DNA of 64,000 nucleotides, taken from IMG/VR virus record IMGVR_UViG_3300029789_000001. The stretch is one strand, 5' to 3'. The stretch comes from a virus. How positions within the stretch are numbered: position 1 is the first letter of the stretch; every line of letters starts with the position of its first letter. This document shows, one piece after another, positions 3,795-44,961 of this stretch. Below the pieces are notes generated by a model. It was given only the letters and a program-made list of their open reading frames with translations. It ran no database searches and had not been told where the DNA came from. The position numbers and the translations under genes were made by a program.

Positions 3795-4026
3795 GCATAT
3801 CAGCAGTTAAAACTCCAGAAGTTCTTCCTACCTCTATATTATCTTTTATAAATACAAGAGTTGGAAGATTTCTAATATTATATTTAAGAGTAGTTTCTTC
3901 CTCTGTCTCTATATCTACTGTAGTTAAAGTAATATCAGTATGATTTTCTAATACTCTTTTTAAAATAGGTGCTAAAACTTTACATTGTCCACACCACTCT
4001 GCTTCAAATTTTAATATTCTTTTCAT
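3763..4026 (-). CDS. thioredoxin-like protein
   Basis: WCGQC active-site motif, 87 aa, thioredoxin fold length. Confidence 0.75.
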   Translation of the reverse strand: MKRILKFEAEWCGQCKVLAPILKRVLENHTDITLTTVDIETEEETTLKYNIRNLPTLVFIKDNIEVGRTSGVLTADMLENKIKEFYA

Positions 4027-4514
4027 TGTGCTAATTCTATATTAATTTCTAATTCATTCTTTCTACTTCTAGTACTACCTTCTAGTTGTCTAGCAGCACT
4101 CCAGTTAGAAATCTTTGTAAGATAGCCGATAATGCGATCCCATAGACTTACATGAGTACTACCACATTTAGGACATTTACTAAACGGTTGTTTTGCTATA
4201 AAATGACACTCTTCACATTCACAATTAGGAATATTAAAAGTAGCATATTTACAACCTACTTTAGCCATAAATTTAAGTAAATACTCATATTGTTTCTGAC
4301 TCAAATGTTCAGATAAATTAAGATGACAAGCAGAACCCCCATCCAATTCATCAGCAGCGAATTCAGAACTATGAAGTATAATTTTATCAAGTATACTTAT
4401 ATGTGTATCATTAGGTTTAAATATATAACTAGCATACAGATTAGTATCTGTAGGAATCCAATAGCCATCAGCTTTATCTCTATTATAAAGTTTTACTGAA
4501 GCGCTTTCTGCCAT
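4023..4514 (-). CDS. nrdD: NrdD C-terminal segment (glycine-radical domain plus zinc ribbon). It is either exon 2 of an intron-split nrdD or a separately translated split-gene fragment.
   Basis: Motifs DGGSACHLNLSE, CECEECHF...CPKCGS and the glycine-radical motif RIIGYL. GAAGGAG sits 9 nt upstream of its ATG, which is a rare SD-like site in this window. Confidence 0.85.
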   Translation of the reverse strand: MAESASVKLYNRDKADGYWIPTDTNLYASYIFKPNDTHISILDKIILHSSEFAADELDGGSACHLNLSEHLSQKQYEYLLKFMAKVGCKYATFNIPNCECEECHFIAKQPFSKCPKCGSTHVSLWDRIIGYLTKISNWSAARQLEGSTRSRKNELEINIELAQ

Positions 4515-4518
4515 TCTG

Positions 4519-5475
4519 TTACGCTCCTTCTATAGAAGGAATTTCTAATATTTTATTTAATTCCTCTATTGGCGAAGGATGATTAATAATATAATATAAA
4601 TCTTTGTTAGGACCATATTCACCAAATAATTCTTGTTCTTTTTTTATTCTAGCTAATACAGCTTCAGCATAAGTAAAATAATTTCCAAGATGTATACTTT
4701 TATAATTATACATTATTCTAGCCGTCCATTTTTTATTTACTTTAAGCCAGTTTACTCCTTTAATTTTTTGATTTAATTTTGTTCCTCTGTTATTATAAGA
4801 ATTTTCTTTTTGAGTACAAACTCGAAGATTTGAAAGCCTATTATCTAAAGAATCCCCATTGATATGGTCTACTACTTCATCAATATTATATTTTTTATCG
4901 TGAAGATGCATTATATATCTATGTACAAAGTATTTTTTACCAGAACCTTCCTCATTTTCTATTCCTGAAAATGCTGCATATTCTTTAATACCACTTTTTC
5001 TTATATAGATTTTATGTTTTTTAATGTCAGGTAAAAATTCTAAATCAACTTTGGTGCTAGCTTTATAATTACCATTTTTATCAAAACATTTTATTTCTAC
5101 ATAATCTTCATGAATAACATATTCATTAGCGTCGTATATAGTTCTATCTCTAATAGCCCCATGTCTAGTTATTTGGATATAATGTTTACGACAATACGGG
5201 GTTCCCTCAAAAGAAGCCATTTTTAAATCTCCACAAATACTACATTTTTCTAAAGGCTTTTTATGTTTTCTTTTAGAAGTGTCGGTGATTTTACCATATT
5301 TATTTAATTGGTCATAGTGTTTTTCACAAACTATATAATCATTGAATCTTCTAAGTTTCCCTTCTTCTTTAGTACTTCCACATACTTCACAGGTACATTC
5401 ATCTGGTATTCTTTTTCTTACTCTTTTTTCTTTTACTAAATTTCTTACTTTTAAAATGTCTAATTTTTGTTCCAT
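4519..5475 (-). CDS. HNH homing endonuclease with an AP2 DNA-binding domain, inserted between the two nrdD segments
   Basis: HNH motif VDHINGDSLDNRLSNLRVCTQKENSYN. AP2-like motif GVNWLKVNKKWTARIMYNYKSIHLGNYFTYAEA. Cys4 zinc knuckles at the N-terminus. Confidence 0.85.
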   Translation of the reverse strand: MEQKLDILKVRNLVKEKRVRKRIPDECTCEVCGSTKEEGKLRRFNDYIVCEKHYDQLNKYGKITDTSKRKHKKPLEKCSICGDLKMASFEGTPYCRKHYIQITRHGAIRDRTIYDANEYVIHEDYVEIKCFDKNGNYKASTKVDLEFLPDIKKHKIYIRKSGIKEYAAFSGIENEEGSGKKYFVHRYIMHLHDKKYNIDEVVDHINGDSLDNRLSNLRVCTQKENSYNNRGTKLNQKIKGVNWLKVNKKWTARIMYNYKSIHLGNYFTYAEAVLARIKKEQELFGEYGPNKDLYYIINHPSPIEELNKILEIPSIEGA

Positions 5476-5733
5476 AAACTATAATTTTTATATTTACTGT
5501 TATAGAACAACTATAGACCCTCATCCTTGGGAATCAAAATTATTTTGTATATTATATTATTAACGGAGAAAATTCTTCGATTTTCTCTCTCTATGTTACC
5601 ATAGAGTTCGGACTATTGCATATTTTAAATAAATTTATTTAAAATTCTCTTTATTTAGTCTCTCAGGCTGCCCATAATTATAATAATTATTGCTTGCCCC
5701 TCGTTGTCCTTAATCTAAGGAGTTTCGAGTCAA

Positions 5734-8562
5734 TTAAAAGAGATTTATAGTGCCCACACGTCTAGGCACTTGTTCAGTATTAAATTGAGCTGTTTTAGTT
5801 TTATGTTTCTTATTCTGTTCTTTTATAGTACTGAATATCAATCTACAGAATGTCTTATAATAAATATTATTATTACATTCCATTCCTAAGTATTCAGCCG
5901 CCTGATTTAAACCATTAATTCCAATAGTTAAATATTGTTTATCAAGATTAATAAAACCAGCATCATAAGCAGCATATAAATGATGATCTTTGCACCAATG
6001 CATTAAGTCGTTATAAGCATACTGATATAAATAAACTCTTTCAAGAATATTTTCTATATATTTCTTAATTCCTTCTTGGAAGTCTTTATGTGTAATCCAA
6101 TCTACTGGGAAACAACATCTATTGGTGTTAACATCAATATGGTCTTTATAATCAGACCAAGTATGCTGCCAATCCTGAATAATTCTATTTAAATCAAGAG
6201 TGATAACATTCTTACTACCAGTCATTATACCTATTTGACCATTAGTAGTATTAAATGTATTTTCTTGTACCGCATTCTGTAAACGACAATTATGAGTAAT
6301 TAATCCACTTGGTAATGTAAAATATGGTTCAGAAGTATTTTTACATTCTATACAATATACTCTATCATTGTAATCATATGGTTCGATAGATTTTATTTTA
6401 AAGTATATTCCATTATTATATTTTATCCAACTATGTTCCTTGTCTTTATTAGCTCTATGATTTGCATCTTCATACCATCTTACACAATATAATGGGTAAT
6501 TTCTTTTATAATGTTCCTCGCGTATTATAACTTCTTCATCTGTTCTATTTGATATATTAATAATGCTTTGCATTCCTAAAGAAGTTATTAAGGCTTCCAT
6601 ATTTTCTGCTAATTCAGGAGAAGTCGTGTAGCATCTGTTAGAATTTCCCCCATCAGTATCATACCATCCTTGTAGTATACCTTCTCTAAATTTTACAGAT
6701 TGAAGAAGACAATTCATGTTTAATTTCTTATTATAAGCATAAGTTCCTCTATACCAATTAGTCCATTTTTGAATAAAAGCAACTAAATTTTTATTAGATA
6801 CTCTTAATGGATAAACATTATTTACTACTTCTTTTAAAACCACGTTAGGTTCATATCCCATTTGTTTTAATGCGAGATTCCAATAAAATTTAGAACGTTT
6901 ATATTTTTGTTCATTTTGGGATAAATTAATATCATAGATAACTCCATTTATTTCAGAACTAAAAGAGCCATCACCTAAAAATGATCCAATTACATAACCT
7001 TGGGCGTAAGTTAAATGTTCATTATTATCTGGAATAGCACTCAACTTAGAAGTATTGAATAATAAGTAATCATTAATAGTTAACTGTTCTGTTGGTTTTT
7101 CTCCTTGTAAAGTTACATTTATATGATTATCAGTCATAATAAACTCTTTATTATTATAAGTGGTAACTTTATACATAGGACGATTAGGTAAATCTATAAC
7201 TTTGCCAGCTACCCAAGAGCCATTGTGAAATACTTTAAAATTCTCTTTCATATTTTTATATGGAAGATTTTTAAATTCTTCAAAGGTAGTTAGATGTACT
7301 CCAGAAGTGCTAGATTTCCATAAAAACTTAGTATCTTTAGAAAAGCAACATGAACTTAAACTATCTACACTACGAGACAGATAAGTAAAGAAAGAATTTC
7401 CTTGAGCATATTCACTGCATATAAAATGGAAAGTATCTAAATCTTTAAAATTACCTTCCTTATCTGTTAAGCAAGCATAACTACATACAGGAAATGTTAA
7501 AATACATTTTAATCTTTCTTGATTTAACCAATGTAAATAACGTCTTTGTAACCAATTAGTAGAATTCCATTCTGGCTTTGTTCCATCTGGAAATACAAAT
7601 TCTCCAAACATACCTTCAAAGAAATATTTATCGAAGAATGAAAAATTTGTAAATGGGGACTGCATTCCTCTAGCTCCTGCTATTTGATTAATGGAATAAG
7701 TTACCTGTTGGAAATATTGATCAATTTGACTGCCAATAGTTTTCTGTTTTATACAATAATCTGTAGTTATTTTTACACTTGGTTTGAGATAATAATTATT
7801 TCCCCATTCTTTTCTACAGAAATAATCCATATACATCAGAAACTCAGGAGTAGCTACTGCTCCTTTAATTTCAGAGGCTAATGCAAAGTTTAGATTTACA
7901 TAAATACCACAAAATGAATCAAGGTTCTTTGGAACAGCTGATTTACCTCCTAATTTCTCTAATCCAAACAACAAGAAAGGATACATAGAAGCTGCCATAC
8001 AATATGGTTCTCCTACTTGAGAAGATGAGTCATGAGGATATAAAATAGTTTTAAAGTCATTCCTCATAACTTTTATATTAAAGTTAGGGTCTCTCTTCTT
8101 TACAAAACTTTCCCACCATTCTGTATTAGTAAGTTTATTATCGACTTTATGTATTTCAGCGTTTAATACTCCAATACCTTTAGTTCCTACATTACTATTA
8201 TCATCAATAGTAGCATTAGCAGTATTATCAGACTTTACAAAATTATGAATAAATTTAATATCCCTAGTAGTATGATTTCTAATATCTTCACGTTCTTTAC
8301 GATATAGAATATATTTTTTAGCCACATCGTGATATCCTAAATCCATTAAGAGTTCTTCAATTTGGTCTTGAATATCCTCAATAGATTGATCTTCAGTCTC
8401 TACTACAGAATTAGTTATCTCAGTAACTGCTCTGTAAATATCTTCGTCCATTGTTTTACTAGAATTTTGGGTAATTCCAAAAGCCTTTAGTACAGCATCT
8501 CTAATTTTGTTTCTGTTAAACTCTTCTTTAATTCCGTCTCTCTTTATTACCATAAATAACAT
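5734..8562 (-). CDS. nrdD: anaerobic ribonucleoside-triphosphate reductase, N-terminal and main part, carrying an in-frame LAGLIDADG intein
   Basis: ATP-cone at the N-terminus (VIKRDGIKEEFNRNKIRDAV). NrdD core motifs TGSKNVITLDLNRI and TIGINGLNQAAEYLG. It ends at ...QVPRRVGTINLF before the expected glycine-radical domain. Confidence 0.85.
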   Translation of the reverse strand: MLFMVIKRDGIKEEFNRNKIRDAVLKAFGITQNSSKTMDEDIYRAVTEITNSVVETEDQSIEDIQDQIEELLMDLGYHDVAKKYILYRKEREDIRNHTTRDIKFIHNFVKSDNTANATIDDNSNVGTKGIGVLNAEIHKVDNKLTNTEWWESFVKKRDPNFNIKVMRNDFKTILYPHDSSSQVGEPYCMAASMYPFLLFGLEKLGGKSAVPKNLDSFCGIYVNLNFALASEIKGAVATPEFLMYMDYFCRKEWGNNYYLKPSVKITTDYCIKQKTIGSQIDQYFQQVTYSINQIAGARGMQSPFTNFSFFDKYFFEGMFGEFVFPDGTKPEWNSTNWLQRRYLHWLNQERLKCILTFPVCSYACLTDKEGNFKDLDTFHFICSEYAQGNSFFTYLSRSVDSLSSCCFSKDTKFLWKSSTSGVHLTTFEEFKNLPYKNMKENFKVFHNGSWVAGKVIDLPNRPMYKVTTYNNKEFIMTDNHINVTLQGEKPTEQLTINDYLLFNTSKLSAIPDNNEHLTYAQGYVIGSFLGDGSFSSEINGVIYDINLSQNEQKYKRSKFYWNLALKQMGYEPNVVLKEVVNNVYPLRVSNKNLVAFIQKWTNWYRGTYAYNKKLNMNCLLQSVKFREGILQGWYDTDGGNSNRCYTTSPELAENMEALITSLGMQSIINISNRTDEEVIIREEHYKRNYPLYCVRWYEDANHRANKDKEHSWIKYNNGIYFKIKSIEPYDYNDRVYCIECKNTSEPYFTLPSGLITHNCRLQNAVQENTFNTTNGQIGIMTGSKNVITLDLNRIIQDWQHTWSDYKDHIDVNTNRCCFPVDWITHKDFQEGIKKYIENILERVYLYQYAYNDLMHWCKDHHLYAAYDAGFINLDKQYLTIGINGLNQAAEYLGMECNNNIYYKTFCRLIFSTIKEQNKKHKTKTAQFNTEQVPRRVGTINLF
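6289..8347 (-). mobile_element. intein (353 aa) with a LAGLIDADG homing-endonuclease domain, inside nrdD
   Basis: Block A: CFSKDTKFLW follows SLSSC. Two LAGLIDADG motifs: VIGSFLGDGSF and LQGWYDTDGGNS. C-terminal ITHN followed by the extein Cys. Excision regenerates SSC-CRLQ. Confidence 0.8.
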
Positions 8563-13732: not shown

Positions 13733-14722
13733 TTAAATTATATTAAATATGTTTATATCTGTAGAATTATAAGGAATTTCATAATGATTATTTACAAATG
13801 CTTTATATCTTAAGTATTTTCTGGTTAGATATATTGAACAATTATCATATAAATAATGTAAGAACTCAATACTTTCTGATTTTTTAAGTTTTAAATTGTA
13901 ATAATCATGTGCAGTATGGCACAACTAAATTAAGCCATTATTTTGATTACTATATTCTGCTATTTTAGTCACCAACTGTAAAGTTCCAAGTACTGAACAT
14001 CTAGGAACTATTCCATATTTATATTTATTATAACTAATACATCCATCACCATCAAAATAACCTCTAATGAAATGTCTTATTAAATCTTTGGATTTAAATA
14101 TATTCTCATTAGGAAATTTAAGAGTTAAGGATTTATTAGGAGTACATCCATATTTATTTAAAGTCTGCCACAAATGTTTATTAGAGGCTGCCCAAACACA
14201 ACTATTAGCATTTTGTCTTATATTGACTGTTCCAGACATAAAAGTATTAAATTTATGTAAATGTTCAATATCAGAATTTTTTAAAGTTATATTTAAAGTG
14301 TATGTCTAAATTTTTTTAGTAACAGTCTTAATATTACCATCAGCATAAATGAACCCTAACCAATACGCTTTTTCTTCAGTATCAATAGAATCAAATATAG
14401 TTTCTGATATCCTAGATTCAATCTGCTTATTTTTAATATTGTAACCTAAATTTTTTAACTTTTCAGATAATGTAGTTCTACTAGTATGATAAATATCTGC
14501 TAAATATCTAAGACTTTTTCCTTCCTTCCAAGGTTTTATTATATCTTTATCAAAATCTTTTATTAATGATTTCTTAGGATTATGCTAAGTTATATTCCAA
14601 GTTCTTAGATTTTCTAAAATAGAATTTTTAGAGACTTTATATTTTTCACTAAGTTCAGTTATTGAAATTCCATCAATATAATCCTATATTAGATTTTGTT
14701 TAATATTATTTAAATCTTTCAT
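13733..14722 (-). pseudogene. second LAGLIDADG homing-endonuclease gene, paralogous to 11280..12377. One continuous frame interrupted only by 4 TAG codons, so either a pseudogene or an amber-read-through gene.
   Basis: MKDLNNIKQNLI(TAG)DYIDGISITE...WNIT(TAG)HNPKK...AYWLGFIYADGNIKTVTKKI(TAG)TYTL...NGLI(TAG)LCHTAHDYY...NIFNII(TAA). The IRHFIRGYFDGDGCISY stretch is near-identical to copy 1. Confidence 0.7.
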
Positions 14723-14758
14723 AAACATAAATAGGGAGGATTACTCCTCCCTAAAATA

Positions 14759-29605: not shown

Positions 29606-30415
29606 TTAGATAACCTTAAACATTGTAACATTCTCAGGAAGATTGTCCCAGTCTTTATAAGAATTAGTAAACCATACGTGATTAAAATTTTCTGACAGAT
29701 TCTTTATACCTTTAGGATTTACCATATGAGTGACTGCGATATTTAAACGTTCCTTAGGGATACCTAAAGCATTAAATGCTTTAGCAATACCACAGAAGGT
29801 TCCACCACCATCACATAAATCATCAAGAATTAACAGAGGTTTATCCTGTACATTTTCAGGATTATCTATTTTAATCTCTAAGATTCTTCCAGTAGTTAAA
29901 TCTCGAACTTTACTACAAGTAATTGCTTTACGATTATATCTGAATTCATTTCTCTTTTCAGCTCCAGCATCTGGGAAAACTAATTGAAATTCTTTCCAAG
30001 TATTATTAGATGGATTCTTTTCAGCGTAAAGAGGCATGAATTTAACTCCGAATCTAGGATCATAATAAACATCAGAATGAGGTTCTAAAATTTCAATAGT
30101 CTCTGCATTACAATTTTTTAATACATTTAAGACTATTTTTAAAGTGAATGGTCTATTGAAAACCATTACTCGATCCATTCTCATACTCATTAAGTAATAG
30201 ATATTTATTTTATATAGAACTTCATGTCTATCAAGGATATCTAAAACTTGCATAAGTATAAATAAGTCTTCAGCATTAGTAATTCTACATTGCACTAATA
30301 CTTGCTCCTTATGGCTGAATTCTTCTAATGAAATTTGAACTTCCCCATCAGGGAATCTAGAAATAGAATACTTAATATCACTATCTTCTAAATGTACTAA
30401 ATTTAATTGTTGCAT
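29606..30415 (-). CDS. ribose-phosphate pyrophosphokinase (Prs) family protein; candidate ADPR-pyrophosphate synthetase (Adps-like)
   Basis: PRPP/ribose-5-P binding loop LLILDDLCDGGGTF. Short for Prs at 269 aa. Genomic context with a macrodomain and a NAMPT-like gene. Confidence 0.65.
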   Translation of the reverse strand: MQQLNLVHLEDSDIKYSISRFPDGEVQISLEEFSHKEQVLVQCRITNAEDLFILMQVLDILDRHEVLYKINIYYLMSMRMDRVMVFNRPFTLKIVLNVLKNCNAETIEILEPHSDVYYDPRFGVKFMPLYAEKNPSNNTWKEFQLVFPDAGAEKRNEFRYNRKAITCSKVRDLTTGRILEIKIDNPENVQDKPLLILDDLCDGGGTFCGIAKAFNALGIPKERLNIAVTHMVNPKGIKNLSENFNHVWFTNSYKDWDNLPENVTMFKVI

Positions 30416-30897
30416 AATTTATAAATATAAAGAGTTATTGTTAAATCATTAGCAAAAAGTTCTTGGAGCATAGGATAAACTACTCCGTCCCAATCTCCTC
30501 CTGCTAATCCACATCCTAATTTATAAGGAATGCCTATCTCTGTAATCTCGTTATCTTTACAAAGGTCTTTTAAATCTAATAAAGCTTTTTTAAGAGCATC
30601 ATAATCAGTATGTCTATTTTCATAGGGAGCTATTGATTCAGTAAAAGAATATTCACCAAATAAATTAGCTACGAGATTAATAGGTTCATCTCCTGTTATA
30701 CATACTTGACATTTCCCTAATAATTCTTTAGAATATTTAAAATATTTACAATAATTGGCATATCGTGTATATACGCTATTCCATTTATTTTTAATAGCCT
30801 TAGCTATACCTGCCCCCATTACTCCTAAACAATTAGTTTGATGGGCTATAAGAGGTAAATTTGACTGAAGTAAATCTCCATTAACAATTTTTATCAT
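30403..30897 (-). CDS. macrodomain protein (ADP-ribose binding or processing)
   Basis: IAHQTNCLGVMGAGIAKAI matches the macro-domain VNAAN...GGGV..AI ADP-ribose pocket. A second glycine motif is LGCGLAGG. Confidence 0.7.
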   Translation of the reverse strand: MIKIVNGDLLQSNLPLIAHQTNCLGVMGAGIAKAIKNKWNSVYTRYANYCKYFKYSKELLGKCQVCITGDEPINLVANLFGEYSFTESIAPYENRHTDYDALKKALLDLKDLCKDNEITEIGIPYKLGCGLAGGDWDGVVYPMLQELFANDLTITLYIYKLCNN

Positions 30898-31644
30898 ACT
30901 AATGTTGAATTTACACGTTCACGAATTTCAGAAAGAGAATATTCTCTTACTAATTCTCCATCTACAAAGACTGTTTTAAGACAACCTTGCAGTTCTGCAT
31001 CCTTGGTCTGCTGGTCATAAGCGACATACTTACCATCCTCTTTTTCAACTCTTATAAGACCTTTGAGAGAGTTCTTTGTTCCATCATCAGTCTTTGGGTG
31101 CTTATAGATTTCTATAAGTTTACCATTAATGGTGCATGCGGTCGCTTTAACTGCGAAACCCAAAGAATCTCTACTCTTAAACTGATAAGTATAAGATCCA
31201 ATACCAAGAACAAGATTACAAGCTGCCATATGAGCGTTCTCTAATCGAGCATAGATATCACGCTGACGCTCTAGAGTGATAGAATCTCCATAGAGCAACC
31301 CAACCTTGGTGCTTGGATAACGATAATCGTTCACAGTAGTATTCCATCCAAAGATTTTACCTAGCATATAATATGCTCCATAATACTGACCTTCAGATAC
31401 TTCTACATAATGACTCTCATCATCATCCATAAATGGATTGAAATCACAGTAGTACTTACCCTCTTTCATAGCAGTGTGGTAATGAGGATTTGTACGAAGA
31501 CCACAAATAATATCCACTGGGTCACCACTATCAGGACGAATTACTACTCGACCATCACGCTTCATAATGTCTTTTTTCAGACGAGGGAGAATACGTTCTA
31601 CCACTCTCCAAAAATCATAAGTATCACTAACTATAGATACAATT
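30894..31644 (-). CDS. nicotinamide phosphoribosyltransferase-family (NAMPT/NadV, possibly Namat) protein, proposed exon 2. The tracked ORF extends to 31736 inside the intron.
   Basis: IVSIVSDTYD, VVIRPDSGDP, LLYGDSITLER and VLGIGSYTYQ match the NAMPT C-terminal half. Confidence 0.7.
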
Positions 31645-32375
31645 CCAATAGGATATAATTCATTTATCAATCTTTTAATTGACAATAATTCTCCAATAAG
31701 TTTTTTGTCCTCTTCAGACGCTTTTTGAATTTTCATATTTATACGCTTTTTTCAAATTATCAATAGCCCATAAAGGCTGTAAATTTTTATAACAGAAACA
31801 CTCTTTTTGCTATATAGGATCAGATAAATCAAAAGAGGAACATGGTCTTATATGATCTAAATGCCATTCACCATAATTATCCCAGGACATTCCTTCAGTA
31901 AATTTGTTTGCAATATATTCTTTTAAAAATTCTATAGAACATCCGATTAATTCCATAGTATGTGCAGATTTAGATTCTCCTTTTAGAGCATGTGCCACTC
32001 TACGTCTGAGGTTATTACGAATTTTAAACTTTAAAGAATTTCTTTCCCATATTCTTTTTTGCTCCCGTAATTTATCTTTATTTTCTTGTCTATAAATTTT
32101 GTCATAAGCAGCTTTTTCTTCTTTATGAGCATCTGCATAAATTTTCTTTTGTGCTAATATATGCTCTTTATTTTCTTCATAATATTTATGTCTAGCTACT
32201 TTAACTTTATCTTTATTAGCCTCTCTATATGCTTTATTTTTAGCATTTCTACATTCTTTACAATGAGTATCTAACCCATCTTTATTTCTTTTGCACTTAG
32301 GAAATTCTGAAATAGGTTTTTCCTAACCACAATTAGAACAAATTTTTGTCTCCATTTTTATCAATATATCCAATT
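31645..32375 (-). other. putative 731-nt group I intron in the NAMPT-like gene, carrying an HNH endonuclease ORF
   Basis: Splicing at ..aaaUU|a...auugG|a gives mature ...DDFGKLIVSIVSDTYD, the same spacing as human NAMPT FSSVPVSVVSDSYD. U at the exon end and G at the intron end. The junction is ambiguous within a 6-nt repeat ATTGGA. Confidence 0.5.
31810..32322 (-). CDS. HNH homing endonuclease, intron-encoded, with no ATG at the start of the open frame
   Basis: Frame open from 32322: EKPISEFPKCKRNKDGLDTHCKECRNAK...(K-rich repeats)...GEWHLDHIRPCSSFDLSDPI. HNH motif plus CxxC...HCxxC zinc site. The track shows only the last 62 aa, from an internal Met. Confidence 0.7.
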   Translation of the reverse strand, partial: EKPISEFPKCKRNKDGLDTHCKECRNAKNKAYREANKDKVKVARHKYYEENKEHILAQKKIYADAHKEEKAAYDKIYRQENKDKLREQKRIWERNSLKFKIRNNLRRRVAHALKGESKSAHTMELIGCSIEFLKEYIANKFTEGMSWDNYGEWHLDHIRPCSSFDLSDPI

Positions 32376-33175
32376 AATTTACCAAAATCATCTAAGATTA
32401 TTTCTTCTACATTATCTTCAAAATCACTAATAGTAGAGCAAGCCACTGAATGTTCCGAAGCCGGGACAGTTGCAGCTACAAGTTCTTCAGTAACATTTGC
32501 ATCGTAATAATGCTCTACTGCTTCAATAGCAGGAATTGTTTCACTACCACAGAATGAAGTCATATGAGCCATACCGGAGATAATAGCAGCATCAAGTCCT
32601 GCCATACCTCTCATTGAGAAATCGTGACAAGAAAAACCTAGATTTACTTCCTCTGGGAATCCAGTCTTTCTAGCATGTTCCATAAGTCTCTTCTTATAAA
32701 GACGAGCACTTGTTGCAGAAGTACAAGGAAGCCATAGAGTACAACTAATTAAAGTTTCCAAGTAATTAGTCAACCAAAAGAAGTCCGGGAGAGTGTTCTT
32801 AATAGTCATCATAGGTACTCTTATAGGACAGATAGAACCTTCAGGAAGAGCTTTAATTTCAATAGGAAGATATCCTAAATCATAGAGTTCTTCAATATGC
32901 TTTGTCCCAACCTGGTTAAGGTCTACAAAGTTACCTACACGATAAGCAAATTGCTTAATAGCTTCTTCCTTAGGAAGAGCAAACCATTTGTTAAATTCCT
33001 CTATCAAATACTTCTTTACAAAGTACTGAATACCAAATACTACAGAACCTTCTGTAGCTTCTGGGAAGTAACGATTACTTCTAGGAGTCCAGTTACTATA
33101 GACCATTTGTGTACCCTCTGGGTACATACGATGATGACCAAGCTTATAGCCATCAGTTGCATTAATAATTTCCAT
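32376..33175 (-). CDS. NAMPT/NadV-family protein, proposed exon 1. The tracked ORF 32333..33175 reads into the intron.
   Basis: DGYKLGHH at the N-terminus, FSCHDFSMRG (cf. NAMPT GLHDFGFRG) and SEHSVACSTISDFEDN. Confidence 0.7.
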
Positions 33176-33665
33176 TAATTGATTCTTTTAATGTTAAACC
33201 TATACTATATTTATAAAACACTTCAGTTATATAACTCTTAGTTTTTTTGTGGATTTTCATATGAGGCTGTTGTTTAAGCCACCATGTATATTCTCTTCTA
33301 GGGTCAGCTCCATATGTTTTAGCTGCTGCTAAATAATCACATATAAGTTCTAGAACGTATTTTTTAGGCATTTTAGCAGGAATCCCTCCATTATCTAAGG
33401 AATGTATCCAATATTCATAATGATGAGGATTTCTTCCTCTATGGTGAAGGAATGTTTGACTATATCCTAATACTCTACATTCATTCGCTAATGAACTTAT
33501 ATTATCATCCCAATATTTAATGGCTCTTGAAAATTCTGTAAAACTAAATTTAGATAAATCATGAATAATACCTTGCCAATATAATCCTATTTGAAAGCAA
33601 TATTTAGCAACATAATACTTATGAGTTAAGATTCGCTTTATTAATTTCAACCAAACTAAGTTCAT
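33162..33665 (-). CDS. hypothetical protein
   Basis: ORF track, 167 aa. Confidence 0.4.
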   Translation of the reverse strand: MNLVWLKLIKRILTHKYYVAKYCFQIGLYWQGIIHDLSKFSFTEFSRAIKYWDDNISSLANECRVLGYSQTFLHHRGRNPHHYEYWIHSLDNGGIPAKMPKKYVLELICDYLAAAKTYGADPRREYTWWLKQQPHMKIHKKTKSYITEVFYKYSIGLTLKESINGNY

Positions 33666-42173: not shown

Positions 42174-43727
42174 TTATACATTTACGTTGGTGTTTTCTAC
42201 GTCGCCATTAACGTTAACATTCTTGTTAACCTTAGCATCAATGGTGTTAGCCTTCATAATGTCTGCCATATCTACACCTGTGGCATCTTTTACAATGTCA
42301 CGAGTCTGCTTAATAATAGCAGGCACATTACCAGAAATACCAGAAGCCTCAGAACCATTAGTTCCATAAACTGTCATATTGCCAATCTTACTCATAGGCT
42401 CAGCAATATACTTAGCCATATCAGGAAGAACTTTCTCATTAAGTTTAGAAAGCATGTCAATTACAGCAATAGAGCCATACTTACTGTATGCTTCAGCCTT
42501 CTTCTGCATAGCCTCAGCTTCTGCAAGACCCTTAGCCTTCACACCTTCAGCTTCTGCCAAAAGTTTAGCTTTAGTACCTTCAGCTTCCGCAGTTAAGGTC
42601 TGCTGAGTAGCATATGCTTCAGCTTCGCCCTTAGCACGAATACCTGCTGCCTCCTGCTCCTGAGAATAACGATTAGCTTCAGCCTTAGCTTTTACAGCCT
42701 TAGCAGTTTGCTCTGCCTTATAAGCTTCAGCCTCAGCCTCACGCTTCTGCTTCTCCAAAGCAGCCTGAGCATCAATTTCTGTCTGATACTTGTCAGCATC
42801 AGCCTTAGCATTTACATCTGCAAGATACTCATTCTGCTTAATCTTAATCTTCTCCTCAGATAAGGTCTGTTCTTTACGAGTCTTCTCAATATCAGCATCT
42901 ACAGTCTTGATATTAATAGTTTTCTGCTGCTCCTGCTGCTGAATTTCATATGCAGCATCAGATTCAGCCTTCTTAATATCAGACAATCTCTTCAGTTCAG
43001 CTCTCTTAATAGCTAATTCATTATTACGTTCAGCAATAATAGTATCAGCCTTTACTCGTGCTTCATTAGCTTCATTGTCAGCCTCAGCCTGAGCCTTAGC
43101 TACGTCTCTATCAGCATTAGCACGAGTAATCTTAGCATTCTTCTGAATAGCTGCTGTATTATCAGCTCCCAAATCACGGATCAAGCCTTTCTCATCAGTA
43201 ATATTTTGAATATTGCAAGACAAAATCTCAAGACCTAACTTAGCCATATCAGGAGCTGCCTTCTTCTGAATTTCATCAGAGAATGCATCTCTATCAGTGT
43301 TAATCTTAATTAAGTCAAGAGAACCTACTACTTCACGCATATTACCCTCCAAAGAATCTTTCACCTGAGCAGCAATCTGCACAGAATTCATATTCAAGAA
43401 GTTCTTAGCTGCAAGTCTAGTGCCTTCTGTATCAGGTTTTACCCTAACTTTACATACGGCATCTACCATTACATCCAAGAAATCATGAGTAGGAACTGGT
43501 TGTGAAGTCTTAACATCAACTGTTACTTGACCAAGATATACTTTATCTAATCGTTCAAGTACAGGAATTTTTACTCCACCACCACCGATAAGTACTCGTG
43601 GCTCCTTACGAAAACCTGAAAGAATGTACGCCATCGAAGGAGGAGCTTTAACATACATTGTAGCAATAATAACAAGCAGTACAATAATAACGACTGCGAT
43701 AACACCAATAAGAACTAAATGTTCCAT
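42174..43727 (-). CDS. flotillin / SPFH (band-7) family membrane protein
   Basis: N-terminal TM helix, SPFH core, then a long Ala/Glu/Lys-rich coiled-coil (EAEAYKAEQTAKAVKAKAEA...). GC-rich at about 42%. Confidence 0.75.
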   Translation of the reverse strand: MEHLVLIGVIAVVIIVLLVIIATMYVKAPPSMAYILSGFRKEPRVLIGGGGVKIPVLERLDKVYLGQVTVDVKTSQPVPTHDFLDVMVDAVCKVRVKPDTEGTRLAAKNFLNMNSVQIAAQVKDSLEGNMREVVGSLDLIKINTDRDAFSDEIQKKAAPDMAKLGLEILSCNIQNITDEKGLIRDLGADNTAAIQKNAKITRANADRDVAKAQAEADNEANEARVKADTIIAERNNELAIKRAELKRLSDIKKAESDAAYEIQQQEQQKTINIKTVDADIEKTRKEQTLSEEKIKIKQNEYLADVNAKADADKYQTEIDAQAALEKQKREAEAEAYKAEQTAKAVKAKAEANRYSQEQEAAGIRAKGEAEAYATQQTLTAEAEGTKAKLLAEAEGVKAKGLAEAEAMQKKAEAYSKYGSIAVIDMLSKLNEKVLPDMAKYIAEPMSKIGNMTVYGTNGSEASGISGNVPAIIKQTRDIVKDATGVDMADIMKANTIDAKVNKNVNVNGDVENTNVNV

Positions 43728-43806
43728 AAATTTGTAAATGTTTAAATAATAAAAATTAAATATCTAAGAATTAACTGATGTTAATTCCAAGGGGGGCATT
43801 TATTTT

Positions 43807-44961
43807 TTATAATTTGTAATTTACAAGACCTGTAGCTTTACTTGCAGAATAGCAACTATTAATTAAATATATTTTAATATATCCATAATCAGTTATAGTT
43901 ATTATATACTTTTCTGCAGCATTTACCATTAGTATACGATCATCTTCAAAATAGTCTCCAGGCTCTAGATATTTCAATTCTTTATCTTCAACAGTAGAAC
44001 CATAATCCTCATCAAACTTAGAAGACCATTCTTTATAGAATTCTTTTTCTTCGAGAGAACGATTTTCCCAATCTTTCTTTTTAAGTTCTCTATACTTATT
44101 ATAAATTTTCAATAGATTATTTATATTTTCAGGAGTAAATTTCAAGTCACAATGACTGATTCGCACTTCTCTATACAAATAAGTAAATCTAGAGAATTCA
44201 ATATTAAAGGTTTCTTTAATATTAGGAAGAGCTTCTACTCCATGAATATTAATTTCAGTTGCTATAGCCTTAATTAAGTCTATAGTAATAATATTCATAG
44301 AATGAGTTAACTCTATAACCTTTTCTATAGCAGTTTTATCTTCCAAAATATCGTTAAGAATTTCTCTAGTAACTTCCTCAGAAAGATTACTGAAAGACTT
44401 TTTATATCTTATTCTAGAAGGTCTACCAAGAAGATTTGGGTCTACATTTAACTCATTAGTAGTAAGTAAAAATACCTTACGATAAATAGAGTTATAAGTA
44501 CCATCCATGAAAGAAAGAACATCAGAAGAATTTTTAAATTCTTTCTCATATTCATCAAAGAAGAAGATACAATCAAAATCAATAGATGTAGATAAATATT
44601 TTATTAATTTACTATTAGTATCACTGCCCATTGATTGTACTAAGACTACAGGAAGCTGTAAACGATTACAAAGTTCCTTTGCAACGACCGTCTTACCAGT
44701 TCCTTTGATTCCATCTAGCAGAACACCTAAATTTCCTGTAGTGTTCTCATATGTCTTTAAGACATAATCAATAAATTTTTGGTTTAGACCATACAGTTTG
44801 TAATCAAACGTAAAAGACTCAGCGATTTTACTTAAGTAAAATCCAGTCATTGAGACTTTTACTTCATAAATACCTTTCGGTAATCCTTCAGGATGAGATA
44901 CTGTTGTCGCACTACCTTGACTAAAAACGTTGCCATCTTGTAACCAAATTTGTTTACCCAT
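43807..44961 (-). CDS. AAA+ ATPase
   Basis: Walker A GVLLDGIKGTGKTV. Walker B IFFFDEYEK. Confidence 0.65.
   Translation of the reverse strand: MGKQIWLQDGNVFSQGSATTVSHPEGLPKGIYEVKVSMTGFYLSKIAESFTFDYKLYGLNQKFIDYVLKTYENTTGNLGVLLDGIKGTGKTVVAKELCNRLQLPVVLVQSMGSDTNSKLIKYLSTSIDFDCIFFFDEYEKEFKNSSDVLSFMDGTYNSIYRKVFLLTTNELNVDPNLLGRPSRIRYKKSFSNLSEEVTREILNDILEDKTAIEKVIELTHSMNIITIDLIKAIATEINIHGVEALPNIKETFNIEFSRFTYLYREVRISHCDLKFTPENINNLLKIYNKYRELKKKDWENRSLEEKEFYKEWSSKFDEDYGSTVEDKELKYLEPGDYFEDDRILMVNAAEKYIITITDYGYIKIYLINSCYSASKATGLVNYKL

Follow-up and report, generated by a model that had tools for sequence, protein, structure and literature searches.

A probable NARP1-AP type NAD+ reconstitution operon with Namat in two pieces in a TAG-recoded crAss-like gut phage

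Two core enzymes, Adps and Namat, make up the NAD+ (nicotinamide adenine dinucleotide) reconstitution pathway NARP1 of SPbetaL1, Bas63 and FADO (bioRxiv 10.1101/2024.02.11.579819; PMC12774641). An arrangement in which a macrodomain (Macro) gene accompanies these two was published in January 2026 under the name NARP1-AP: from NAD+, aRES proteins with a RES domain release nicotinamide and ADP-ribose (ADPR)-1''-phosphate (ADPR-1''-P), which Adps is unable to use, and the operon-encoded Adpp converts ADPR-1''-P to ADPR, restoring NARP1 function against aRES; the Macro gene is carried by 15% of NARP1 phages (Osterman et al., bioRxiv 10.64898/2026.01.28.702374). Here we describe a locus at positions 29,606 to 33,175 of a viral DNA of 64,000 nucleotides (IMG/VR record IMGVR_UViG_3300029789_000001; this whole stretch is called the window below). 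Judged from its sequence, the locus is likely to be an NAD+ reconstitution operon of the NARP1-AP type, belonging to a crAss-like gut phage in which TAG is recoded, with the gene order Namat/Adpp/Adps and with Namat in two pieces.

The window has a G+C content of about 29%, is transcribed throughout on one strand and contains 12 tRNA genes. Its relatives are crAss-like phages (DAC15, cr126_1, cr85_1, cr111_1 and Kolpuevirus) and Lak phages, the closest record being MT835492.1, a 121.6-kb human-gut phage scaffold. The open reading frames (ORFs) of the module, in gene order, and the approximate extent of a mobile cassette within it are:

33175..32333, minus strand: Namat N-fragment (gene 1), 280 aa; Pfam NAMPT_N and NAPRTase profile positions 1-60
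32355..31714, minus strand: HNH/endonuclease VII-like ORF (gene 2), 213 codons from ATG to TGA, with two in-frame TAG codons
31736..30894, minus strand: Namat C-fragment (gene 3), 280 aa; NAPRTase profile positions 72-238
30897..30403, minus strand: Adpp-like Macro domain protein (gene 4), 164 aa; PF01661, E=9e-10
30415..29606, minus strand: Adps-like Prs homologue (gene 5), 269 aa; weak, sub-threshold Pribosyltran and Pribosyltran_N matches
31556..32445, minus strand: mobile cassette, approximate extent from the DNA alignment with an allele (L009) that lacks the homing endonuclease gene (HEG)

All of these ORFs lie tightly packed on the minus strand, exactly where the initial annotation had placed a Prs-like, a macrodomain and a NAMPT-like gene, identities borne out by the ORFs and their Pfam matches. 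ATGA overlaps had been described on both sides of the macrodomain gene; the junction of the Namat C-fragment with Macro is of this kind, while Macro and Adps overlap by 13 nt. Adps in turn overlaps the next gene by 1 nt.

Adps, Namat and Macro

The comparison of the 269-aa protein with the Prs and Adps clades, which the initial annotation had proposed, places it on the Adps side. With the Prs model TIGR01251 (cutoff 113) it scores 66.9 bits, against 423 for E. coli Prs and 100-138 bits for the validated Adps of SPbetaL1, Bas63 and Gary, and it is thus more diverged from Prs than these are. With an Adps-clade hidden Markov model (HMM) built from 15 proteins of Osterman 2024 Table S1, none of them from crAss or Lak phages, it scores 185 bits versus 143 for E. 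coli Prs. The blastp scores are 100 bits with Bas63 Adps, 72 with Gary, 63 with SPbetaL1 and 42 with E. coli Prs. The loop that binds phosphoribosyl pyrophosphate (PRPP), DDxxDGG, is present as LILDDLCDGGGT, the Adps-type motifs PHSDV, PDxGAxKR and KxR(D/N)xxTG are common to the window protein and Adps, and the N- and C-terminal extensions of Prs are missing. Its K169 aligns to the catalytic Lys K162 of SPbetaL1 Adps, an enzyme that is inactivated by the mutation K162A; a Namat gene is next to 97% of the genes in the Adps clade, and for the DAC15 orthologue of the window gene Table S1 has the entry "Namat nearby: Yes" (Osterman et al. 2024, bioRxiv 10.1101/2024.02.11.579819). In the window Namat lies two genes upstream of Adps in the same operon. 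These data support placing the Prs-like protein in the Adps clade, as a predicted ADP-ribose diphosphokinase making ADPR-pyrophosphate (ADPR-PP).

The NAMPT-like protein, which was likewise to be compared between NadV and Namat, falls with Namat in both of its pieces. Against the SPbetaL1 Namat structure PDB 9w5x the N-fragment scores 254 bits (E=1.6e-74; human NAMPT 135 bits, Xanthomonas Nampt 98 bits) and the C-fragment 197 bits (E=2.4e-57; human NAMPT 58 bits, Xanthomonas Nampt 86 bits). Namat is defined by an adenine-binding selectivity clamp, formed by an Arg in a loop (R40) together with a motif in a helix, GSX-Phi-X-Phi-X-Phi-TRD, the latter not present in NAMPT (PMC12774641). The motif occurs in the C-fragment as GSYTYQFKSRD, in which positions 3 and 7 are Tyr and Phe and the Thr preceding RD is replaced by Ser, so that both adenine-stacking positions are aromatic, and R35 of the window protein aligns to the clamp Arg. 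In the residue numbering of SPbetaL1 (structures 9w5x/9w5w), the N-fragment keeps D13, Y15, R40, F189, S190, R192, A242 and H245; the C-fragment keeps R306, D308, G360, D361, G390, S391, R399 and D400, with the substitutions F392Y, Y396F, T398S and A362S. The mapped catalytic-core residues are therefore distributed over two polypeptides, and all except D215 are kept. In the N-fragment, residues 1-246 correspond to the N-terminal domain of Namat and the beginning of its catalytic barrel, as far as the catalytic His segment EHSVAC; the C-fragment holds the remainder of the barrel and the adenine-binding clamp helix. Assignment of the NAMPT-like gene to the Namat clade rather than to NadV is supported by these matches and by the clamp motif, and the gene pair appears to be NARP1, as first proposed, rather than Prs and NadV.

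Over its full length the Macro protein shares 38% identity with Adpp (gp137) of Vibrio phage Gary (164 of 158 aa aligned, E=7e-28, 89 bits), and the motifs AHQxNC, MGxGIA and GCGLAGGDWD are common to both. Its best phage matches are "phosphatase" genes located between Prs-like and NAMPT-like genes in Vibrio Thalassavirus phages, and it matches the phosphatase family phrog_335 with 136 bits. We take these data to support a predicted ADPR-1''-phosphate phosphatase, the third component of the module. In suggesting that the macrodomain could deprotect substrates of the ADP-ribose type, the initial annotation came essentially to what has been published for Adpp. The idea of NARP1 plus a macrodomain was right and is not new, because it is already published as NARP1-AP, and with 15% of NARP1 phages having it the three-component variant is not new either.

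One might instead suppose that Macro is an ADP-ribosyl glycohydrolase of the DarG/TARG1 type, for example reversing DNA ADP-ribosylation by DarT, and that the ADPR it releases feeds Adps and Namat. Its best matches of solved structure are indeed the DarG macrodomain (5m3i, E=1.4e-9), BT1257 and TARG1, with Poa1p at E of about 1e-4, and the NCBIfam DarG model gives 61.9 bits. This score is, however, far below the cutoff of 250, and in direct comparison DarG (41 bits) and TARG1 (34 bits) remain well behind the 89 bits of Gary Adpp. In the HMMER alignment the DarG catalytic-Lys region PTKKHW corresponds to GEYSFTES, without Lys, and the operon position is identical to that of Adpp. A glycohydrolase is for these reasons quite improbable.

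We consider ordinary salvage still less probable, indeed very unlikely. Here the Prs-like protein would make PRPP, the NAMPT-like protein would make nicotinamide mononucleotide (NMN) and a host NMNAT would finish the pathway as in NadV-type systems, Macro being unrelated. Prs and NAMPT are the names given by Pfam and NCBIfam, and Namat keeps a residual PRPP-to-NMN activity in vitro (PMC12774641). The Prs-like protein nevertheless lies far below the Prs cutoff (66.9 versus 113) and higher on the Adps profile; the clamp motif is present, with SPbetaL1 Namat as the best structural relative; an Adpp-like Macro is embedded as in NARP1-AP; and the near-universal adjacency of Namat to Adps-clade genes, with the DAC15 orthologue so listed, argues in the same direction. 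NARP2 of phage KVP40 (NadV/Nampt plus a bifunctional NMNAT) also has a NAMPT-family enzyme in a phage NAD+ pathway; in the window, by contrast, that enzyme has the Namat clamp motif and a Prs-like partner. The initial annotation saw no NMNAT gene nearby, and among the 40 largest ORFs of the window there is neither an NMNAT nor a Nudix gene.

Compared with NARP1-AP of Gary and the Thalassavirus phages, the preferred NARP1-AP reading of the window locus involves the same three families in one tight operon with Macro between the NARP1 genes; Namat keeps its clamp motif and Adps its catalytic Lys. The gene order is reversed (Namat, Adpp, Adps), the phage is a crAss-like phage of Bacteroidales, a group absent from Table S1 of that paper, Namat is split by an HNH gene and has Glu for Asp215, and TAG is recoded. 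Compared with NARP1 of SPbetaL1, Bas63 and FADO, which provide the best structural and sequence matches, it has the same two core enzymes and adds the Macro gene and a fractured Namat. Homologues from crAss-like (DAC15) and Lak phages were already in the 2024 NARP1 dataset (bioRxiv 10.1101/2024.02.11.579819).

By homology, Macro (Adpp) would take the 1''-phosphate off ADPR-1''-P made by RES-type NADases, Adps would pyrophosphorylate ADPR with ATP to ADPR-PP, and Namat would combine ADPR-PP with nicotinamide to give NAD+. The net effect would be to defeat NAD+-depleting defences (Thoeris, SIR2-type, DSR and aRES).

The slot between Namat and Adps varies among relatives. It holds Macro in the window lineage (window, MT835492.1 and L009), a phrog_1238 "phosphoheptose isomerase"-like gene in DAC15 and in L007, and nothing in cr85_1 and L006. 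The phrog_1238 protein is 142-145 aa long and has no Pfam match (DAC15 L001 4585-5013; L007 7302-7739); it may be another NARP1 accessory enzyme, analogous to Adpp or RyDEP.

The interruption of Namat

The initial annotation had the NAMPT-like gene carrying an intron. Rfam, searched with the whole window at gathering thresholds, gave no intron, and for positions 31500-32600 neither a group I nor a group II intron was matched even at E<=10. The positive control is Namat of the relative L011 (5162-6754, Logan ERR3393571 contig), in which this search does pick up a group I intron (RF00028, 52.4 bits); the intron lies inside the clamp motif GIGS, between GIG and S, a site that differs from the window's, and carries a 385-aa DUF723 ORF. 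Such an intron would account for the many database Namat homologues that end at about 397 aa, and other truncation points among homologues, at about 262, 285 and 310 aa, suggest further insertion sites, which would make Namat a mobile-element hotspot in this phage group. Neither Namat half has a Pfam match to an intein/Hint domain, in a search whose positive control, the intein in NrdD of the same window, was detected.

Each half has its own ATG and stop codon. The gap is occupied by the HNH ORF, which overlaps the last 23 nt of the N-fragment and the first 23 nt of the C-fragment, so that only about 65 nt of the insert lie outside it, and these are coding. Its product matches phrog_1035 endonuclease VII (97 bits) and phrog_2255 HNH endonuclease. 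Similarity to unsplit Namat runs up to EHSVAC (C249 of SPbetaL1) and picks up again near residue 255, which leaves no more than a loop of five residues missing. Added to the N-fragment is a tail of 34 aa, and to the C-fragment a leader of 5 aa, MKIQK; these extensions are too short for an intein, and the leader has no HN/Ser-Thr-Cys splice motif. Frameshift fusion of the HNH ORF to either half was considered and rejected, there being no slippery heptamer in the right register.

On this evidence the interruption is a free-standing gene of the homing-endonuclease type that splits Namat into two ORFs, and the intron reading is refuted. That one contiguous Namat is made after all, through a self-splicing intron or an intein, seems to us hardly credible: precedents lie close at hand in the true group I intron of L011 and the intein of the window's NrdD, but that intron occupies a different site, no intron family appears in the interval at E<=10, and the starts, stops and conserved extensions of the halves, together with the missing Hint domain and splice motif, leave little room for splicing.

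Comparison with L009, a Logan contig whose HEG-less allele has a backbone about 99% identical, delimits the cassette. Identity ends at about 32445 and returns at about 31556 (window positions), so that about 890 nt in the window replace about 165 nt of L009; the putative target site in L009 is the sequence around CGTCTTATTAATGACTTATATCCAACAGGTATTATCTCAATAGTATCTGATACTTGGGA. Within the cassette lie the tail of the N-fragment, the HNH ORF, and the start codon and leader that the C-fragment gains from it; on the right it also includes a diverged flank of some 120 nt, only about 70% identical to L009. Presence or absence of a block with a diverged flank is the pattern expected of a homing cassette travelling with a cleavage-resistant flank.

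The same split is found in diverged relatives. In L006 and L007 the layout of N-half, HNH ORF of about 210 aa and C-half is repeated with the same overlaps, the N-halves being 74% (L006) and 69% (L007) identical to that of the window, and a common endpoint recurs in at least 11 distinct N-halves (62-91% identity), together with a shared tail motif, C[SA]...EV[IV][IL]DD...I.GY[IV]D..G.K..[FL]. The C-half leader is conserved as M[KE][IV][QR]KA[ST]E.DK. Between the window and L006 the N core has a ratio of nonsynonymous to synonymous substitution rates (dN/dS) of 0.12, and the C half one of 0.11; for the HNH ORF the proportions of nonsynonymous (pN) and synonymous (pS) differences are 0.12 and 0.76, the latter saturated. 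From the same split in diverged relatives, the low dN/dS and the co-diverged HNH ORF we conclude that the split state is old and that both fragments and the nuclease are under purifying selection, which, for the two fragments, is the main, if indirect, argument that a two-piece Namat works.

Synonymous divergence in the N-fragment tail is low (pS 0.07 versus 0.65 elsewhere), a difference over only 34 codons that is not robust. The idea, prompted by this value, that the HNH ORF extends upstream through the tail is rejected, since TAA stops interrupt that frame. The low value is better explained by the many two-fold AT-ending codons, by first-position changes that are conservative (D/N, V/I, L/I/M) and by the tail's overlap with the beginning of the HNH ORF.

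Structurally, the HNH cassette sits in a surface loop just after the catalytic-His strand of Namat, supplying the stop codon and 34-aa tail of the upstream half and the new ATG and 5-aa leader of the downstream half. Most likely each 280-aa polypeptide is produced on its own, and the two would then join non-covalently to form an active Namat.

Genes in pieces of this kind have known counterparts. In Aeromonas phage Aeh1 the free-standing homing endonuclease gene mobE reportedly splits nrdA into functional pieces, and "fractured genes" are said to have been described by Dassa et al. in 2009. We know of no report of Namat as a fractured gene. The window locus shares with these cases a free-standing HEG inside a conserved enzyme gene, yielding two ORFs, and shows the presence/absence polymorphism and diverged flank that are expected for intronless homing. 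It differs in having no split-intein halves, in a cassette with conserved tail and leader peptides, in the recoded TAG codons of the HEG and in its target, an anti-defence enzyme.

NrdD, the anaerobic ribonucleotide reductase, is a second gene in pieces in the window (8562..4023, minus strand), with the following parts:

8562..5734, minus strand: NrdD N part, 942 aa, with ATP-cone, NrdD N-part and an intein with a LAGLIDADG domain
5475..4519, minus strand: HNH_3 endonuclease ORF splitting NrdD
4514..4023, minus strand: NrdD C-terminal part, 163 aa
3794..3294, minus strand: radical-SAM activase-like ORF

TAG codons in the nuclease genes

TAG recoding is known for crAss-like and Lak phages. In the window, in-frame TAG codons are found in the HNH ORF (32325-32323 and 31812-31810), a GIY-YIG ORF (54538..53906, minus strand; three) and a LAGLIDADG ORF (14728..13733, minus strand; four). 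These three ORFs have no internal stops other than TAG, and the other window genes are normal under code 11. In L006 the orthologue of the HNH ORF contains nine in-frame stop codons, every one a TAG, and that of L007 has none; opposite these nine, L007 has Gln in six cases, Glu in two and Leu in one, and two of the nine share columns with window TAGs. In the other half of the MT835492.1 genome (L012, 45000-94999), stop-free stretches of at least 150 aa amount to 4,193 aa with the standard code and 15,337 aa with TAG as sense (3.7-fold), the longest in this late half being 3,401 aa with TAG as sense.

The TAG codons of the HEGs and the gain of ORFs under TAG-sense in the late region of a relative indicate that the lineage is TAG-recoded, and that these homing-endonuclease genes, located in an otherwise standard-code early region, need the recoding. 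TAG in the HNH ORF is probably read as Gln. An HNH ORF that needs TAG as sense fits with TAG-recoded late genes and may confine expression of the nuclease to late infection; late-only expression of all the TAG-containing nucleases is our inference. A bolder and rather tentative proposal is that the HNH cassette is a self-contained gene-fracturing module, whose tail and leader let the Namat pieces re-associate and whose nuclease is gated by late TAG-to-Gln recoding. If this were true, an anti-defence enzyme could tolerate, and spread with, a selfish nuclease.

Two tRNA-like paralogues on the minus strand (56442-56526 and 56957-57037) have an anticodon loop of about 18 nt; Rfam aligns both as tRNAs, at 53 and 47 bits, with insertions of 11-15 nt. 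For the 85-nt copy at 56442-56526 ARAGORN gives "tRNA-Stop (tta)" and a long variable arm; the copy at 56957-57037 escapes it.

Deletion alleles and neighbouring genes

Relatives of the window carry the following deletion variants of the locus:

P0007: Namat fused to the Adps C-terminus (at FCG)
P0095: Namat fused to the Macro C-terminus
P0011: truncation
P0010, P0013 and P0026: HDFSMRG active-site segment lost
MT835492.1 (L002 6333-6518): DUF5662 fused to the last 29 aa of Namat, Macro and Adps kept

Several observations weigh against the reading of the locus as an NAD+ reconstitution operon with a working two-piece Namat. The genomes with these deletions, to which P0004 is to be added, are 99-100% identical to the window's Namat N-terminus, the deletions show microhomology, and the HEG-less alleles L009 and L010 carry deletions or frameshifts as well. 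The module is clearly dispensable in the window lineage, as expected of an accessory anti-defence locus, and is perhaps decaying there. Assembly of the Namat fragments is purely inferred; an AlphaFold2 (AF2) model of the concatenated halves, built with 18 homologues, has a mean pLDDT of 58.8, below 50 around the fracture, and is uninformative. The nicotinamide-binding D215 (D219 of human NAMPT) is Glu (GSETIPA) across the crAss-like clade, a change that could alter base specificity between nicotinamide and nicotinate. The closest solved relatives of Macro by sequence are DarG, BT1257 and TARG1, with Poa1p more distant, and the predicted Adps identity is based on profile scores and motifs rather than on a full phylogeny. 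No suppressor tRNA whose anticodon is CTA turned up in the window, nor in the rest (76 kb) of a close relative.

Some of the deletion variants could be assembly artefacts; there are several independent cases. Differing microhomology deletions in near-identical genomes mark the NARP1-AP locus as a deletion hotspot in natural populations. They also lend weight to the view that the module is a decaying or inactive remnant, in which the HNH insertion inactivated Namat, the operon is being lost and the halves are recent pseudogenes. The deletions that remove the module (P0007, P0095, P0011, P0013 and MT835492.1), the state of L009 and L010, and a fragment assembly on which the AF2 model gives no information would all agree with it. 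Against this, both halves are full-length and, D215 apart, have all the mapped catalytic and clamp residues, and the split persists down to 62-74% identity with dN/dS of about 0.11-0.12, a co-diverged HNH ORF and a conserved tail and leader; functional genes in pieces reportedly exist, as in Aeh1 nrdA/mobE. We think a remnant unlikely, if well short of negligible.

On the preferred reading, a NARP1-AP type operon with a two-piece Namat, what is new here is modest: a phage/host clade for NARP1-AP, an unusual genes-in-pieces Namat, and apparently TAG-gated HEGs. The system would be extended to crAss-like, TAG-recoded phages of human-gut Bacteroidales. The Macro table of the NARP1-AP paper has no Bacteroides, Prevotella or crAss entries, and its list of candidate aRES proteins includes Bacteroides and Prevotella genomes (bioRxiv 10.64898/2026.01.28.702374). 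Candidate aRES NADases in Bacteroidales hosts and NARP1-AP in a crAss-like phage together imply an NAD+ arms race, including the ADPR-1''-P layer, in the most abundant phage group of the gut. The fractured Namat is a natural experiment on whether an intertwined two-domain enzyme can work as two chains, and the coexistence of HEG-plus, HEG-less and deletion alleles in near-identical genomes points to fast turnover of accessory anti-defence loci. For annotation, a split Namat risks being called a truncated NAMPT or a pseudogene, and TAG-containing HEGs are missed under the standard code.

Upstream of the operon, a gene for a DUF5662 protein (33665..33162, minus strand, 167 aa, with HD-like His/Asp motifs) overlaps the start of the Namat N-fragment by 14 nt and is syntenic in L006 and L009. 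It was considered as a fourth operon component and dropped, because the DAC15 locus has no counterpart of it and the PDB contains no relative. Further away (44961..42174, minus strand), an AAA ATPase of 384 aa is followed by an SPFH/Band 7-flotillin protein of 517 aa with a long Ala/Glu/Lys-rich coiled-coil, a pair unusual in the early region of a phage.

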